Positions 13,904 through 47,600 of a DNA stretch of 64,000 bases are shown in pieces. The DNA lies in the NCBI GenBank assembly GCA_964016885.1, contig OZ024744.1, positions 104,594,001 through 104,658,000 on the forward strand, written 5' to 3'. The stretch comes from Eledone cirrhosa (taxonomy: Eukaryota). Under the pieces are notes generated by a model, which saw only the letters and a list, made by a program, of their open reading frames with translations, did no database searches and was not told the origin of the DNA. Each line of letters begins with the position of its first letter. Position 1 is the first letter of the stretch. Position numbers and translations under genes: made by a program.

Positions 13904-15113
13904 AATGAGTCAAAGTTAAAGTAAGTTGATTTATCCGAAAACTTAGATATGCTATTGTTACAAAGCAAACTAACAATTTTTTTATTTGTAGTTGCAGTCT
14001 GACTGGACTGGAAACCATCTACTACAATTCACTTACTCATTTGTTGTATATATTTTACCATTTATTAATAAATATACCCTCCCGCGTGGTCATGAAAACC
14101 CTCTTCCGTGGTCTCTAAGCTCACAAAGCAGGGGGACATCAAGTTTGATATTAACATTTATTCTGTCCGTTTCATTAAAGGGAAAATTGGAAAGCTTTGA
14201 AATGATATAATTGCCACTTTCTTCCAGATAAGAGCACTCTTTGGATAGACAGAGTTGCTCTTGTATAAATGTTCAAAATAGCTGGTATCGCCTGGTGGGA
14301 ATATAACAAATTCAACTGGTCCTTATTCATAAAAAAGAACATTTATGTTCCTTTTTTTGAAATTTATATATTTCCTTTCAAGGAATGTATTTATACTCTC
14401 AGCTGCCTGAATATTGTTAATCAATCTTTTAGTAATCTACTGATAGTAAAATCAGTAGTATATTGAAAAATGGATAAATAGGGTAGGGGGAGGGGCGTTT
14501 CATGATTTCAAGGGACAAAAGGGGGCGTTTGGCCTAAATGGGTTGAGAACCTGTGCTCTAGATCAACAAAAGTTAGATATAGAGACTTACTCTTAACCAA
14601 AAAGATGGCATCCATAGTGCTACTGCCTGGCATACAACTAAACTACATCTCATCTATTTTGATTCTTTCCCTAATTAGTTGTGCCATAACTCGATCCATT
14701 ACTTTCATTACCTAGTCCATTAGTTTTATGCCCCTGTAGTTGGTCCTTTCTTGTACATCACCTTTCTCCTTGTAACAATTAATGAGTATACTACTACACC
14801 AGTTATTAGGTATGACACCATCTTGTACTACCTGACTAGTTCAACTCCTATTTCCCCAGATTTCAACATCTCAGTGACTATCTCAGGTGACTCAACAGCT
14901 ATACCCTTCTTCAGCTCCTTCATTGCTTCCTTAACCCTATAACTGTCAATTTCAAAAGCTGGCATGGAAAATAAACGTTAAACAATGATGATGATATATA
15001 TATTTATATATATCAGTAATATTTTGTTACATTTTTAAAGTAACAAATATTAAAAGATTTATTTTATCAGGAACATCCAGCATCAGATGAAATATTTATG
15101 TTATGGATTAAAT

Positions 15114-15185
15114 ATTTCATCTGATGAGCGTGCTGGACGTTTCTGTTAAGATTGTCTAGTTTTCTGAAACCTTTGGTAATGTAAT
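15114..15185 (+). ncRNA. Hammerhead-ribozyme-like motif (first of a tandem pair)
   Basis: atttcat-CTGATGA-..gctggac..gtctagt..-GAA-ACC ttt GGT-A-atgtaat. Preceded by an inverted copy of its own 5' part at 15070-15097. Confidence 0.6.
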
Positions 15186-15223
15186 AAATATATTGTGTTG
15201 TTTATTGTGTAATTAAATTTAAA

Positions 15224-15261
<38 letters not shown>

Positions 15262-15302
15262 GCCTTATTTTTTGAATTTTTATGTTTAATTTTTTTTCTT
15301 TT

Positions 15303-15426
15303 TGGCTCTGATGAGGAGTCCATATCAAACATTTCTTTTTATTGTACAATTATCGATTTTAGGATCGATAATTACCTCCTCTATGTACAAATTACTGATT
15401 TGGTTTCTGAAACAATTTGTCAGCCA
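15303..15426 (+). ncRNA. Hammerhead ribozyme motif with ~95-nt helix II
   Basis: tggct-CTGATGA-ggagtccatatca...tgatttggtttct-GAA-ACA att TGT-C-agcca. Inner stems ttgtaca/tgtacaa and aattatcgat/atcgataatt; GUC triplet. Confidence 0.7.
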
Positions 15427-15544
15427 GTAAATATATTTATTCAAAATTCTCATGCTGTTTTCTCTGATATTTAATATTTCTATATATATGTATATACACA
15501 TATATATGTATATATACAAATATATGTATATATATATGTATATA

Positions 15545-15880
15545 CCCCAACTCCCTCACCCCCATCAACATCACCCCTACCTCTGTAAAGTTATGTTGGT
15601 ACCACAACATCCAGTCCTAAATAAATGAGGTCGTGTAGGTGTCACGACAAAAAAAAAAACACAGTCCACACTGTAATGTGGCCGTGTAGGTAACATGGTA
15701 AAAACCTCCCAGTCCACACTGTAAACGTGGTTGGTGTTAGGAAGGGCATCCAGCCGTAGAAAACCTGCCAGACAGTCCTATACGAGCGAGACGACCAATC
15801 TTGCCTCAAGTGGGACAATTCCCGTCTAAAACTATGCTAGCGTGAAAGATAGACGTTAAACGATGATGGTGATGATGATG
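15545..15880 (+). mobile_element. RTE-LINE 3' UTR / SINE-like fragment with (gat)n tail
   Basis: Core ggttggtgttaggaagggcatccagcc and tail aaacgatgatg. Confidence 0.8.
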
Positions 15881-15979
15881 ATATATATATATATATATAT
15901 GTGTGTGTGCGTGTGTGTATTCATATATATACAAATATATATACACACACACGCATATATATATATATATATATATATA

Positions 15980-16165
15980 CAAATCCGCGACGTAAACACA
16001 AGAAAATTCCCCTTAAGTAGCCACATTGCCGATTGTGCAGGAATTACTCTACCCAACTTTAAAATCTTCCCCCTTTACAAGTGCTCCGATTCTTTCACTC
16101 AACAACAAAGAATAAATAAATAAAAACTATTTATTAACAGATTTAAACCAAAATTAAATATGTAA
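15980..16165 (+). mobile_element. Penelope-like element GIY-YIG endonuclease C-terminal remnant
   Basis: Reads QIRDVNTRKFPLSSHIADCAG...FKIFPLYKC...RINK*KLFINRFKPKLNM*, a typical PLE endonuclease ending (H-x3-C ... FI-x3-KP-x-LN). Confidence 0.75.
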
Positions 16166-17698
16166 TCACCCCCATTAGATTCTACCCCCCCCCCCCTCAC
16201 ACACACATACATCATGAAATAAGAGAGAAAAAATTGCTCATACACATATTTTCCAAATATTCATGATTGAAAGTCACCACTGATGCTTTGCTCTGTTTTT
16301 TTTTTAATTTCTCATCACAAAGGGACCTGTGACAGACAGGCTGAAGCACCCCCCCCCCCCCACACACACACGTGTGCATTTTTATATATACACTCTCACA
16401 CTACACACACACTCTCTAAAATCATATTCCAAAAAGAGAATTTATTTTACAACCCTGCTGTTGTCAATCCCATAGAATTTGTCTCTAGCTTACAATTCCC
16501 ACCCCGCCTCGCCACCCCCATCTGAACTCTTGACCAGTCCATTAACACAATTGAGGTACACACACATATTTACAGGATATTTCCATTGTCCCAATAAACA
16601 ATTTTGTTCTGTGAAGAAACACAACTACCACCACTGCTGCTGCTGTTACTACCATGACTACCTCTCTCTATATACATGAGAGTTCATTTTCCAGTCTCCT
16701 TCTCAACAAGGAAGATGAAAAAAAACTTACCCCTTAATTTTAAATCTTTAATTTTTAGTTTTTAATTCTTATTAATTCTTTTTAATTGTAATACTCAACA
16801 TTTGATAAGATGAATTTTAATAATACATCGAAACCAGTAATACTTTATATACTTTATATACATTATAAAACTCTTTTTTAAAAGAATTGTCCCTCTCATT
16901 TTTACAATAATGTCACTTTGACGAATCAAAGAAAGGAAAAAAAAAGAAAAACAGATCCTAAAATATATTTTCCGTGCTATTTCCAACTTCATCTTTTCTC
17001 TATAATCACTGTTTTGTATAGAACCTTTTCTAATATATATATATATGGGTGATATCCAATTTTAGCGGCCTAAATGCTGCTTACTTGCTGTAGTTGCTGC
17101 TTACTTCAATGTATGAGGCTATTCCAACAAATTTACATTCCCCTTTTTTTAGCCGTTAAAAGAAATATAGATTTATTTATTGTTTTTTTTTTTGCGATTT
17201 ATTTGCCACTGGCGCATAGATTTCTTTATTTGCCCCTTTTTTGTTTGTTTGTTTGTTTGTTTTTTTGCGATTTATTAGCCTTTTGGGGTCACACACACCC
17301 CCGTAGAAAGTGTGCGACCTTTCTGCCAGGGAGCACAGAGAGAGGGGGGTACTCCCTTCTTCTCTTACCTGTACAAGCCGATATAGAGAGATGGCCCACT
17401 TATACGGGCCATTATTGCTACTTTCACCCATCTTTCATGGAATTGGCTGGGACTGAGTGCCTTTTTCTCCACCGTGATCCTTCTTTTGAAGTGGTATCGG
17501 AAGAAGAGGACCATTTGTTGGCCGGCGACATATCCCCACAGTTTCCTCGTTGCAAACGCATCTGGGACATTTCTTTTCCAAGGGGTTTCCGTCCCGGAAT
17601 CCGTGTCTGTAGAGCCTTTCCCAAACGGGCAGGGCCCCTCGGTATAATAGTAAGTATTAGTGGTTGTAATAAAAATGCAATCAAAATGTAATAAATAC

Positions 17699-42166: not shown

Positions 42167-45100
42167 AATACTAAACTGTCTGAAACTGCCCCTGGTACTA
42201 AACTGTCTAAAACTGACCCTGGTACTAAACTGTCTGAAACTGCCCCTGGTACTAAACTGTCTAAAACTGACCCTGGTACTAAACTGTCTGAAACTGCCCC
42301 TGGTACTAAACTGTCTAAAACTGCCCCTGATACTAAACTGTCTGAAACTGCCCCTGGTACTAAACTGTCTAAAACTGCCCCTGGTACTAAACTGTCTGAA
42401 ACTGCCCCTGGTACTAAACTGTCTGAAACTGCCCCTGGTACTAAACTGTCTGAAACTGCCCCTGGTAGTAAACTGTCTGAAACTGCCCCTGGTACTAAAC
42501 TGTCTGAAACTGCCCCTGGTACTAAACTGTCTGAAACTGCCCCTGGTACTAAACTGTCTAAAACTGCCCCTGGTACTAAACTGTCTAAAACTGCCCCTGG
42601 TACTAAACTGTCTAAAACTGCCCCTGGTACTAAACTGTCTGAAACTGCCCCTGGTACTAAACTGTCTAAAACTGCCCCTGGTACTAAACTGTCTGAAACT
42701 GCCCCTGGTACTAAACTGTCTGAAACTGCCCCTGGTACTAAACTGTCTAAAACTGCCCCTGATACTAAACTGTCTGAAACTGCCCCTGGTACTAAACTGT
42801 CTGAAACTGCCCCTGGTACTTAACTGTCTGAAACTGCCCCGGTACTAAACTGTCTAAAACTGCCCCTGGTACTAAACTGTCTAAAACTGCCCCTGGTACT
42901 AAACTGTCTAAAACTGCCCCTGGTACTAAACTGTCTGAAACTGCCCCTGGTACTAAACTGTCTGAAACTGCCCCTGGTACTAAACTGTCTAAAACTGCCC
43001 CTGGTACTAAACTGTCTAAAACTGACCCTGGTACTAAACTGTCTGAAACTGCCCCTGGTACTAAACTGTCTAAAACTGCCCCTGATACTAAACTGTCTGA
43101 AACTGCCCCTGGTACTAAACTGTCTAAAACTGCCCCTGGTACTAAACTGTCTGAAACTGCCCCTGGTACTAAACTGTCTGAAACTGCCCCTGGTACTAAA
43201 CTGTCTAAAACTGCCCCTGGTACTAAACTGTCTGAAACTGCCCCTGGTACTAAACTGTCTGAAACTGCCCCTGGTACTAAACTGTCTGAAACTGCCCCTG
43301 GTACTAAACTGTCTGAAACTGACCCTGGTACTAAACTGTCTGAAACTGCCCCTGGTACTAAACTGTCTGAAACTGCCCCTGGTACTAAACTGTCTAAAAC
43401 TGCCCCTGGTACTAAACTGTCTAAAACTGACCCTGGTACTAAACTGTCTAAAACTGCCCCTGGTACTAAACTGTCTGAAACTGCCCCTGGTACTAAACTG
43501 TCTAAAACTGCCCCTGGTACTAAACTGTCTAAAACTGCCCCTGGTACTAAACTGTCTGAAACTGCCCCTGGTACTAAACTGTCTGAAACTGCCCCTGGTA
43601 CTAAACTGTCTAAAACTGCCCCTGGTACTAAACTGTCTAAAACTGCCCCTGGTACTAAACTGTCTAAAACTGCCCCTGGTACTAAACTGTCTGAAACTGC
43701 CCCTGGTACTAAACTGTCTGAAACTGCCCCTGGTACTAAACTGTCTAAAACTGCCCCTGGTACTAAACTGTCTGAAACTGCCCCTGGTACTAAACTGTCT
43801 AAAACTGCCCCTGGTACTAAACTGTCTGAAACTGCCCCTGGTACTAAACTGTCTAAAACTGCCCCTGGTACTAAACTGTCTAAAACTGCCCCTGGTACTT
43901 AACTGTCTAAAACTGACCCTGGTACTAAACTGTCTAAAACTGCCCCTGGTACTAAACTGTCTAAAACTGACCCTGGTACTAAACTGTCTAAAACTGCCCC
44001 TGGTACTAAACTGTCTGAAACTGCCCCTGGTACTTAACTGTCTAAAACTGACCCTGGTACTAAACTGTCTGAAACTGCCCCTGGTACTAAACTGTCTAAA
44101 ACTGACCCTGGTACTAAACTGTCTAAAACTGACCCTGGTACTAAACTGTCTAAAACTGACCCTGGTACTAAACTGTCTAAAACTGCCCCTGGTACTAAAC
44201 TGTCTGAAACTGACCCTGGTACTAAACTGTCTAAAACTGACCCTGGTACTAAACTGTCTGAAACTGCCCCTGGTACTAAACTGTCTAAAACTGACCCTGG
44301 TACTAAACTGTCTAAAACTGACCCTGGTACTAAACTGTCTAAAGCTGCCCCTGGTACTAAACTGTCTGAAACTGCCCCTGGTACTAAACTGTCTGAAACT
44401 GCCCCTGGTACTAAACTGTCTGAAACTGCCCCTGATACTAAACTGTCTAAAACTGCCCCTGGTACTAAACTGTCTAAAACTGCCCCTGGTACTAAACTGT
44501 CTGAAACTGCCCCTGGTACTAAACTGTCTGAAACTGCCCCTGGTACTAAACTGTCTGAAACTGCCCCTGGTACTAAACTGTCTAAAACTGCCCCTGGTAC
44601 TAAACTGTCTAAAACTGCCCCTGGTACTAAACTGTCTGAAACTGCCCCTGGTACTAAACTGTCTGAAACTGCCCCTGGTACTAAACTGTCTGAAACTGCC
44701 CCTGGTACTAAACTGTCTAAAACTGCCCCTGGTACTAAACTGTCTAAAACTGCCCCTGGTACTAAACTGTCTGAAACTGCTCCTGGTACTAAACTGTCTG
44801 AAACTGCCCCTGGTACTAAACTGTCTAAAACTGCCCCTGGTACTAAACTGTCTAAAACTGCCCCTGGTACTAAACTGTCTAAAACTGCCCCTGGTACTAA
44901 ACTGTCTGAAACTGCCCCTGGTACTAAACTGTCTGAAACTGCCCCTGGTACTAAACTGTCTAAAACTGCCCCTGGTACTAAACTGTCTGAAACTGCCCCT
45001 GGTACTAAACTGTCTAAAACTGCCCCTGGTACTAAACTGTCTGAAACTGCCCCTGGTACTAAACTGTCTAAAACTGCCCCTGGTACTAAACTTTCTAAAA

Positions 45101-47600
45101 CTGCCCCTGGTACTAAACTGTCTGAAACTGCCCCTGGTACTAAACTGTCTAAAACTGACCCTGGTACTAAACTGTCTAAAACTGACCCTGGTACTAAACT
45201 GTCTAAAGCTGCCCCTGGTACTAAACTGTCTGAAACTGCCCCTGGTACTAAACTGTCTGAAACTGCCCCTGGTACTAAACTGTCTGAAACTGCCCCTGAT
45301 ACTAAACTGTCTAAAACTGCCCCTGGTACTAAACTGTCTAAAACTGCCCCTGGTACTAAACTGTCTGAAACTGCCCCTGGTACTAAACTGTCTGAAACTG
45401 CCCCTGGTACTAAACTGTCTGAAACTGCCCCTGGTACTAAACTGTCTAAAACTGCCCCTGGTACTAAACTGTCTAAAACTGCCCCTGGTACTAAACTGTC
45501 TGAAACTGCCCCTGGTACTAAACTGTCTGAAACTGCCCCTGGTACTAAACTGTCTGAAACTGCCCCTGGTACTAAACTGTCTAAAACTGCCCCTGGTACT
45601 AAACTGTCTAAAACTGCCCCTGGTACTAAACTGTCTGAAACTGCTCCTGGTACTAAACTGTCTGAAACTGCCCCTGGTACTAAACTGTCTAAAACTGCCC
45701 CTGGTACTAAACTGTCTAAAACTGCCCCTGGTACTAAACTGTCTAAAACTGCCCCTGGTACTAAACTGTCTGAAACTGCCCCTGGTACTAAACTGTCTGA
45801 AACTGCCCCTGGTACTAAACTGTCTAAAACTGCCCCTGGTACTAAACTGTCTGAAACTGCCCCTGGTACTAAACTGTCTAAAACTGCCCCTGGTACTAAA
45901 CTGTCTGAAACTGCCCCTGGTACTAAACTGTCTAAAACTGCCCCTGGTACTAAACTTTCTAAAACTGCCCCTGGTACTAAACTTTCTAAAACTGCCCCTG
46001 GTACTTAACTCTCTAAAACTGACCCTGGTACTAAACTGTCTAAAACTGCCCCTGGTACTAAACTGTCTAAAACTGACCCTGGTACTAAACTGTCTAAAAC
46101 TGCCCCTGGTACTAAACTGTCTGAAACTGCCCCTGGTACTTAACTGTCTAAAACTGACCCTGGTACTAAACTGTCTGAAACTGCCCCTGGTACTAAACTG
46201 TCTAAAACTGACCCTGGTACTAAACTGTCTAAAACTGACCCTGGTACTAAACTGTCTAAAACTGACCCTGGTACTAAACTGTCTAAAACTGCCCCTGGTA
46301 CTAAACTGTCTGAAACTGACCCTGGTACTAAACTGTCTAAAACTGACCCTGGTACTAAACTGTCTGAAACTGCCCCTGGTACTAAATTGTCTAAAACTGA
46401 CCCTGGTACTAAACTGTCTAAAACTGACCCTGGTACTAAACTGTCTAAAACTGCCCCTGGTACTAAACTGTCTGAAACTGCCCCTGGTACTAAACTGTCT
46501 AAAACTGCCCCTGGTACTTAACTGTCTAAAACTGACCCTGGTACTAAACTGTCTAAAACTGCCCCTGGTACTAAACTGTCTAAAACTGCCCCTGGTACTA
46601 AACTGTCTAAAACTGCCCCTGGTACTAAACTGTCTAAAACTGCCCCTGGTACTAAACTGTCTGAAACTGCCCCTGATACTAAACTGTCTAAAACTGCCCC
46701 TGGTACTAAACTGTCTAAAACTGCCCCTGGTACTAAACTGTCTAAAACTGCCCCTGGTACTAAACTGTCTGAAACTGCCCCTGGTACTAAACTGTCTGAA
46801 ACTGCCCCTGGTACTAAACTGTCTAAAACTGCCCCTGGTACTAAACTGTCTGAAACTGACCCTGGTACTAAACTGTCTAAAACTGCCCCTGGTACTAAAC
46901 TGTCTAAAACTGCCCCTGGTACTAAACTGTCTAAAACTGCCCCTGGTACTAAACTGTCTGAAACTGTCTAAAACTGCCCCTGGTACTAAACTGTCTAAAA
47001 CTGACCCTGGTACTAAACTGTCTAAAACTGCCCCTGGTACTAAACTGTCTGAAACTGCCCCTGGTACTAAACTGTCTGAAACTGCCCCTGGTACTAAACT
47101 GTCTGAAACTGCCCCTGGTACTAAACTGTCTGAAACTGCCCCTGGTACTAAACTGTCTGAAACTGCCCCTGGTACTAAACTGTCTAAAACTGCCCCTGGT
47201 ACTAAACTGTATGAAACTGTCTAAAACTGACCCTGGTACTAAACTGTCTAAAACTGACCCTGGTACTAAATTGTCTAAATCTGCCCCTGGTACTAAATTG
47301 TCTAAAACTGCCCCTGATACTAAACTGTCTGAACTGTCTCTGGTACTAAGCTGTCTGAAACTGTCTTTGGTACTAAACTGTCTGAAACTATCCCTGGTAC
47401 TAAACTGTCTGAAACTATCCCTGGTACTAAACTGTCTGAAACTATCCCTGGTACTAAACTGTCTGAAACTATCCCTGGTACTAAACTGTCTCTGGTACTA
47501 AACTGTCTGAAACTGTCTCTGGTACTAAACTGTCTGAAACTGTCTGTGGTACTAAACTGTCTGAAACTGCCCCTGGTACTAAACTATCTAAAACTGTCTC
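42167..47600. repeat. 27-bp minisatellite (about 200 units) in a NECAP intron
   Basis: Unit ggtactaaactgtctgaaactgcccct. Confidence 0.97.

Follow-up and report, generated by a model that had tools for sequence, protein, structure and literature searches.

Do the two hammerhead motifs at this locus form one retrozyme-like unit, from which double cleavage would release a small RNA, or do they belong to unrelated sequences that came to lie side by side? Within the 64,000-nucleotide stretch analysed here (the window; G000:C28:104594001-104658000, in an animal genome of 3.0 Gb), a first-pass annotation had described two same-strand hammerheads about 190 bp apart, and this arrangement was confirmed. 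The motifs, here called motif 1 and motif 2, lie on the same strand, 187 nt apart from core to core and 243 nt from cut to cut. The window contained two matches to a loose hammerhead pattern, compared with 0.08 per shuffle in 60 dinucleotide-preserving shuffles of the window, and one match to a strict pattern, compared with none in 60 such shuffles. A same-strand pair within 400 nt was absent from all 60 shuffled windows. Since the shuffled windows were nearly empty of hammerhead matches, the motifs are not due to chance. In the Rfam search, no family reached its gathering score anywhere in the window, and the 34 weak matches below that score between 13000 and 19000 were only miRNA matches driven by microsatellites, with no hammerhead. 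The features of the locus were as follows.

15066-15108, minus strand: inverted partial end of family A, antisense to the motif 1 core (seen as a hairpin; other loci also have upstream inverted copies)
15109-15218, plus strand: 5'-truncated 3' end of family A with motif 1 (family alignments)
15219-15257, no strand: A-run and (TA)n run (15232-15257), the A/B junction, where family A homology ends and family B homology begins
15257-15479, plus strand: 5'-truncated 3' end of family B, a Hydra-clade Penelope-like element (PLE), with motif 2 (longer copies have RT and GIY-YIG remnants)
15480-15545, no strand: TA-rich microsatellite beyond the family B end (sequence)
15629-15978, plus strand: abundant short interspersed repeat (about 15629-15880), then a TA/TG/CA microsatellite (15881-15978), between families B and C
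15980-16165, plus strand: 5'-truncated GIY-YIG C-terminus of family C (Neptune-like), with one internal stop (translation; longer copies)
16166-17000, plus strand: 3' untranslated part of family C with motif 3 (one piece with the ORF end in 14 of 14 loci)

The short repeat at about 15629-15880, which gave up to 76 alignments among the fetched loci, is presumably a SINE.

Motifs 1 and 2 fall into two repeat families that do not overlap. With the DNA from 15060 to 15450 (391 nt) as the query, the 40 scored of 1302 candidates gave 69 matches, which split into those covering query positions 2-232 and those covering 206-391; among these 40, only the match of the locus to itself spanned both motifs. 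The alignments placed the switch between the two families, which we denoted A and B, at the A-run and (TA)n run of 15219-15257. In 257 fetched loci, a set that includes overlapping loci and was not de-duplicated, family A was found in 89, family B in 78 and both in four, all four being this locus; a smaller comparison of 91 loci likewise gave no second A+B copy. Co-occurrence of both motifs in other genomic copies, the check proposed in the first-pass annotation, was found nowhere outside this locus among the loci examined. It should be noted that only part of each family was sampled (40 of 189 candidates scored for family B, and 30 loci of 392 matches for family A), so rare A+B pairs may exist elsewhere.

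The two motifs resemble each other only over a 34-nt stretch around GAAA (76%). Pairing between the helix III strands of motif 1 and motif 2 was predicted at -0.8 kcal/mol, compared with -5.1 and -4.1 kcal/mol for the self-pairs; the strands are thus predicted not to cross-pair, and motifs 1 and 2 would not assist one another in the way that retrozyme repeats do. The nearest fetched relatives were 93-95% identical for family A, 88-90% for family B and 86-87% for family C, a rough measure that suggests different insertion ages for the three families. Within the (TA)n run a target-site duplication is unreadable, and the order of insertion rests on these rough identities. As for expression, three small-share contig sets compared with 14900-17100 matched it only in pieces of 18-38 bases.

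We consider it highly probable that the locus is a stack of three truncated 3' ends of repeat families, each with its own hammerhead motif, brought together at TA microsatellites when Penelope-type elements inserted separately into one TA target. The first-pass annotation had mentioned separate insertions as a caveat to its own proposal, and that caveat is supported by the family boundaries, the (TA)n junctions and the lack of an A+B pair elsewhere among the loci examined, all of which are observed, as are a Hydra-type ORF for family B and a Neptune-like ORF for family C. In the proposed course of events, the element endonuclease would nick (TA)n, reverse transcription would begin close to the hammerhead, from the 3' end of the RNA, and mostly halt early, and each insertion would leave (TA)n alongside. 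Because such early-stopping copying is directed into (TA)n, short hammerhead-bearing ends would accumulate side by side. Penelope-like elements are reported to tend to insert beside existing copies (PMC6765202). In the parent elements, the hammerhead would cleave the transcript during replication, and the short-helix-III hammerheads of these elements are described as likely to cut as dimers (PMC6765202). The copies in the window are aged and probably cut poorly or not at all.

Motif 1 is a putative type I hammerhead with a canonical core (CUGAUGA at 15121-15127 and GAAA at 15166-15169), helix III at 15169-15177 and a GUA site at 15176-15178, with the cut predicted after 15178. Its core halves are separated by 38 nt, one G.U pair lies at the base of helix II, and helix I has three contiguous pairs. 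Across family A, helix I is 8 bp long with 95.6% of cells paired, and the change at 15182 breaks it in the window copy alone (1 of 42 copies). Counts of the family A core are biased, as 27 loci were chosen by a pattern containing the core.

An antisense copy ahead of motif 1 had been noticed before and was borne out, with 15066-15097 pairing with 15110-15145 (minimum free energy -44.7 kcal/mol, z -6.69, none of 200 shuffles as stable). Folding of motif 1 was predicted to cost about 30 kcal/mol with this antisense arm, 6.8 kcal/mol without it and 5.9 kcal/mol in an intact copy, and motif 1 at this locus is predicted to be blocked by the arm. The fold-back would be the usual inverted 5'-truncated copy. 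An inverted partial copy upstream is the form described as usual for Penelope-like insertions (PMC8557442), and an inverted copy was found upstream in 10 of 30 family A loci chosen by their 3' tail, two locus pairs among these 10 being the two arms of one insertion each.

Family A is abundant, with at least 392 exact genome matches to a 35-nt tail pattern. Its 5' truncation, inverted upstream copy, 3' hammerhead and microsatellite flanks are the architecture of a Penelope-like element, and the 9-nt helix III of motif 1 and the U at 11.1 resemble entries in the published Hydra table. No parent RT/GIY-YIG ORF was found upstream of the examined family A loci, so it is the architecture that points to a Penelope origin. 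PLE ORFs lie upstream in 5 of 20 long family A loci and belong to other families with their own 3' ends. Several of these were considered as the parent and rejected. The family of the ORF upstream in L099 ends right after the ORF and has family A in 3 of 25 loci, one of them the query locus. The Neptune-like ORF of L102 belongs to a young family in which family A was absent from 25 of 25 loci at 1.5 kb flank. The Hydra-like ORFs of L101, L184 and L189 differ from one another, and each is followed by its own 3' end.

Judging from the ORF remnants of longer copies, family B is a Hydra-clade Penelope-like element, and motif 2 belongs to its 3' end. Remnants of RT and endonuclease end 0.6-1.1 kb upstream of the motif in L092-L095 and L200, and a further family B copy, L203, is linked to these ORF remnants. 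RT is followed by a C-terminal GIY-YIG in L092-L095, which is the Hydra-clade order, and the remnants carry the YRDD motif of RT and follow the published Hydra alignment (PMC8557442) in a by-eye comparison. The translation of L092 has a CxCX5C linker, with CxxC and CxH flanking the conserved E and N, and these three motifs are described for Hydra elements (PMC8557442). The RWK and DKT motifs of the Hydra clade would lie in the N-terminal part, and the fetched family B copies are cut off before it. TA runs flank the family B copy of the window and TA also lies 3' of most aligned copies, consistent with the (TA)n insertion reported for almost all Hydra families (PMC8557442). Pfam gave nothing significant for five ORF pieces, and one protein search among longer proteins only found no homologue.

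The first-pass annotation had also reported a Penelope GIY-YIG remnant next to the tandem hammerheads. The remnant is present: translation of 15980-16165 gives the C-terminus of a GIY-YIG endonuclease, interrupted by one stop, and longer copies in the genome have ORF ends that are 85-87% identical to it. However, it is part of the family of a third motif, family C, and of neither upstream motif. The stretch 15978-16880 was matched as a single piece, at 79-87% identity, in 14 of 14 other top loci, and in none of those 14 did family A or B lie upstream of family C. Longer family C copies have a C-x4-C-x2-C linker upstream of the GIY-YIG motif, and a CX2-5CxxC linker precedes a C-terminal GIY-YIG in L023, L025, L026, L028 and L029, as in the Neptune-clade elements, whose C-terminal GIY-YIG is described with a cysteine-rich CX2-5CxxC linker (PMC8557442). 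On these features family C appears Neptune-like; Nematis shares the linker.

Motif 3 lies at 16802-16839, with a U3-A8 core at 16802-16808, a 4-bp helix II and a predicted cut after 16839. It had been flagged earlier as a possibly decayed hammerhead. The motif is indeed there, but decay is the wrong reading of its core, since TTGATAA is the state of the family (11 of 14 copies, with CUGANGA in 0 of 14), and U3-A8 is a published natural hammerhead variant (PMC4209133; PMC3088659). A palindromic helix III was found in 10 of 14 family C copies and is broken in the window copy. Helix I is only 2 bp family-wide, so the activity of motif 3 is doubtful. The motif fits variants described among animal PLE hammerheads, which include a short palindromic helix III, the U3-A8 core and a 2-bp helix I (PMC4209133).

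Separate insertions have to be weighed against the possibility that the A/B pair arose in one event, in which the RT copied the end of a family B RNA, switched to a family A RNA and so made a chimeric cDNA. Such an origin would fit the two same-strand ends, with family B truncated at its 5' side exactly where the complete 3' end of family A stops. That template switching occurs in these insertions is shown by the fold-back before motif 1. However, a 26-nt (TA)n run lies at the junction, as for a genomic target, and the nearest-copy identities (93-95% for A compared with 88-90% for B) point to unlike ages, and we regard this origin as very improbable.

It is also very improbable that, after separate insertions, read-through transcripts are cut at both motifs to give the 243-nt RNA as an accidental by-product without a role. 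Motif 2 would be suited to this, being near its lowest-energy fold with a canonical core and a GUC site, but the hairpin upstream of motif 1 is transcribed first and would hold the motif back by about 30 kcal/mol, and animal Penelope hammerheads are described as weak in vitro, with mainly dimer cleavage (PMC4209133).

The composite retrozyme-like unit that the first-pass annotation had proposed, in which both motifs cut, the 243-nt RNA forms a circle and a Penelope-type RT copies it as one unit, is extremely improbable: the motifs share a strand, 243 nt fits the range of 51-972 bp given for animal retrozymes (10.64898/2026.07.22.740005) and both cores are canonical in the window copy, but the families are disjoint with (TA)n between them, no second A+B copy was present among the loci examined, the 243 nt do not form a repeat unit, unlike the single, tandemly repeated unit of a retrozyme, the two motifs have helix III strands that are predicted not to cross-pair, and motif 1 carries a helix I lesion of its own and is predicted to be trapped by the antisense arm. 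The likeness that invites such a reading is real, as animal non-LTR retrozymes (Cervera and de la Pena 2020, PMC7229834; Li, Clavereau and Pollet 2026, 10.64898/2026.07.22.740005) are likewise reported with a same-strand type I pair a few hundred bases apart in non-coding, AT-rich DNA. However, retrozymes are described as tandem copies of one unit with the same ribozyme, whereas the motifs in the window come from unrelated families, and the A+B combination is single-copy among the loci examined, unlike the genome-spread retrozyme units.

Under separate insertions, the feature of wider use is the structure of motif 2. Its core (CUGAUGA at 15308-15314 and GAAA at 15409-15412) follows the CUGANGA...GAAA...NUH pattern of a type I hammerhead, with a GUC site at 15419-15421 and a predicted cut after 15421, and its helix I has five Watson-Crick pairs and one U.G. 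The GUC site and a multi-stem helix II of about 95 nt had been pointed out earlier, and both are present: helix II spans 94 nt (15315-15408), with three predicted stacked stems. In the window copy the closing pair is G.U and the basal stem contains two U.U mismatches; its hammerhead fold lies 4.8 kcal/mol above the ensemble, compared with 4.5-4.6 kcal/mol in intact family copies. The long helix II is shared generally by the 37 family B copies examined, with a closing pair that is mostly G-C; 29 of them have a GUC site, and core positions 3-5 read CCG in 18 copies, CTG in 12 and something else in 7. For motif 2, both the canonical U4 and the G.U closing pair may plausibly derive from CpG decay, given the dinucleotide counts in these 37 copies at U4 (CG 22, TG 12, CA 2) and at the closing pair (CG 21, TG 11, CA 3), with the limitation that the copies were chosen by likeness to the window copy.

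The long arm extends beyond family B. An abundant sister family, found by protein search, has an endonuclease 60% identical to that of family B; of 14 motifs read in its loci, 13 have the CCG core and all 14 the long helix II. Helix II measures 94-99 nt across family B and the sister family, usually with a CCGAUGA core. The three-helix fold of motif 2 had 84% of cells paired, compared with 32-43% in slid controls, the 84% being biased in that the structure was derived from the same sequences. Compensatory change comes from one comparison between family B and the sister family, anchored at the core (L042 with L209): 7 of the first 11 helix II pairs are changed on both sides yet paired, 3 are identical, and the remaining one is mismatched in L042. 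A counter-example, in a single copy, is L184, a Hydra-like long-arm motif with the base of helix II unpaired.

Within families, covariation was no better than in shuffles, so the folds are read from family-majority base-pairing: the family B score was equalled or beaten by 285 of 500 shuffles, and the named structure of family A showed no excess over shuffles. Decaying copies are not expected to covary. With RNAalifold, family B yielded no consensus fold, and family A yielded only a hairpin of 5 pairs. The structure alignments left out copies with large indels (2 of 37 in family B and 5 of 42 in family A).

We tentatively suggest, as a possibility that falls somewhat short of probable, that the Hydra-clade elements here carry an active hammerhead of a new build, which combines a CCGAUGA (C4) core with a branched helix II of 94-99 nt. 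The long arm would provide tertiary contacts or dock a protein and in this way rescue or gate the weak core; U4C is reported to lower in vitro activity considerably and yet to be sufficient in a viroid (PMC3088659). The length of helix II and its basal stem appear to be kept between families that are 60% identical in endonuclease, and such motifs would be invisible to standard hammerhead descriptors. In the mainly open-access literature, a helix II of 94-99 nt with a C4 core was not found in print.

The Hydra-clade hammerheads of Craig et al. 2021 (PMC8557442) are similarly described as type I motifs that follow a C-terminal GIY-YIG and lie close to the 3' end, with a 9-nt helix III and (TA)n targets, and U at 11.1 is common in the published table. 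However, in the published Hydra rows (n = 26, File S2) the core halves lie no more than about 26 nt apart and the core always starts with CUGA, whereas this span is 94-99 nt in family B and the sister family, where CCGA prevails. In the same file, two Selaginella rows reach about 50 nt and are flagged there as deviating (PMC8557442). Among the animal PLE hammerheads of Cervera and de la Pena 2014 (PMC4209133), many are single motifs from truncated elements, and opposite-strand pairs 100-700 bp apart are described, with which the fold-back before motif 1 fits. Helix II in that set is given as 6-8 bp with a conserved G10.1-C11.1 pair, whereas motif 1 spans 38 nt with a G.U or A-U base pair, and motif 2 spans 94 nt. 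The components of the locus are Penelope-type hammerheads of known kinds, and the arm of about 95 bases in motif 2 is the sole unusual detail.

The reusable result is therefore the family-level long-arm motif and not the tandem arrangement. Should a hammerhead with a C4 core and a 95-nt helix II prove to cleave, the known hammerhead architecture would be widened; this would also account for Rfam and published descriptors missing these elements, and would offer a way to test the role of the ribozyme for Penelope-like elements, a role described as unclear in the cited papers. The locus itself is ordinary repeat debris, and it carries a caution, as (TA)n-targeting Penelope-like elements put unrelated hammerheads adjacent to each other and thereby mimic retrozymes.

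Same-strand hammerhead pairs within 600 nt were also found elsewhere in the fetched loci, five in all, by a scan that demanded four helix I pairs and hence listed neither the window pair nor motif 3. One of the five is a true repeat (L009, 469 nt). In the other four, the motifs are dissimilar or only distantly related and are separated by TA runs of 24-76 nt: L019 (226 nt), L255 (357 nt), L218 (478 nt, related motifs) and L253 (569 nt). The family B motif comes first in L019, the order opposite to that of the window, and L180 has family B with family C after it.

Copies of the long-arm hammerhead also occur outside the window, in an abundant and younger Hydra-like family at loci L208-L225 of the same genome (e.g., the motif at L214:2320-2430). 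Its motifs have a CCGAUGA core, a helix II of 94-96 nt and an 8-nt palindromic helix III, and they are better material for assay than the window copy, the 3' end of a Hydra-clade Penelope-like element that carries motif 2. In another abundant Penelope-like family (L104-L128), the 3' end comes soon after the ORF, and a hammerhead scan of these loci found no type I hammerhead belonging to the family itself.

A Neptune-like family at L129-L153 is young, with copies that are 97-98% identical. The motif at its 3' end has the U3-A8 core variant with GCA in place of GAA, and therefore the ribozyme of this family may be dispensable or altered. A compact U3-A8 hammerhead, identical at L137 and L216, has a 4-bp helix I, a 4-bp helix II and a palindromic helix III.

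Across all loci, 85 distinct hammerhead-like motifs, a sample skewed toward the families that were searched for, had A-U (34/85), G.U (28/85), G-C (18/85) or U-A (5/85) as the closing pair of helix II.

On the minus strand of L009, two short and identical type I hammerheads are spaced 469 nt apart. This pair is a true repeat, and it looks like a retrozyme unit.

Three further features of the window lie outside the stack of truncated Penelope-type 3' ends:
14500-14960, minus strand: decayed reverse-transcriptase fragment, presumably of the LINE type, immediately upstream of the stack
15023-15052: a short, AT-rich inverted repeat, preceded by the upstream TA run and followed by the antisense arm (an inverted partial copy of the family A end)
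42792-47501, both strands: long open frames whose boundaries coincide; this is probably an array of tandem or satellite repeats
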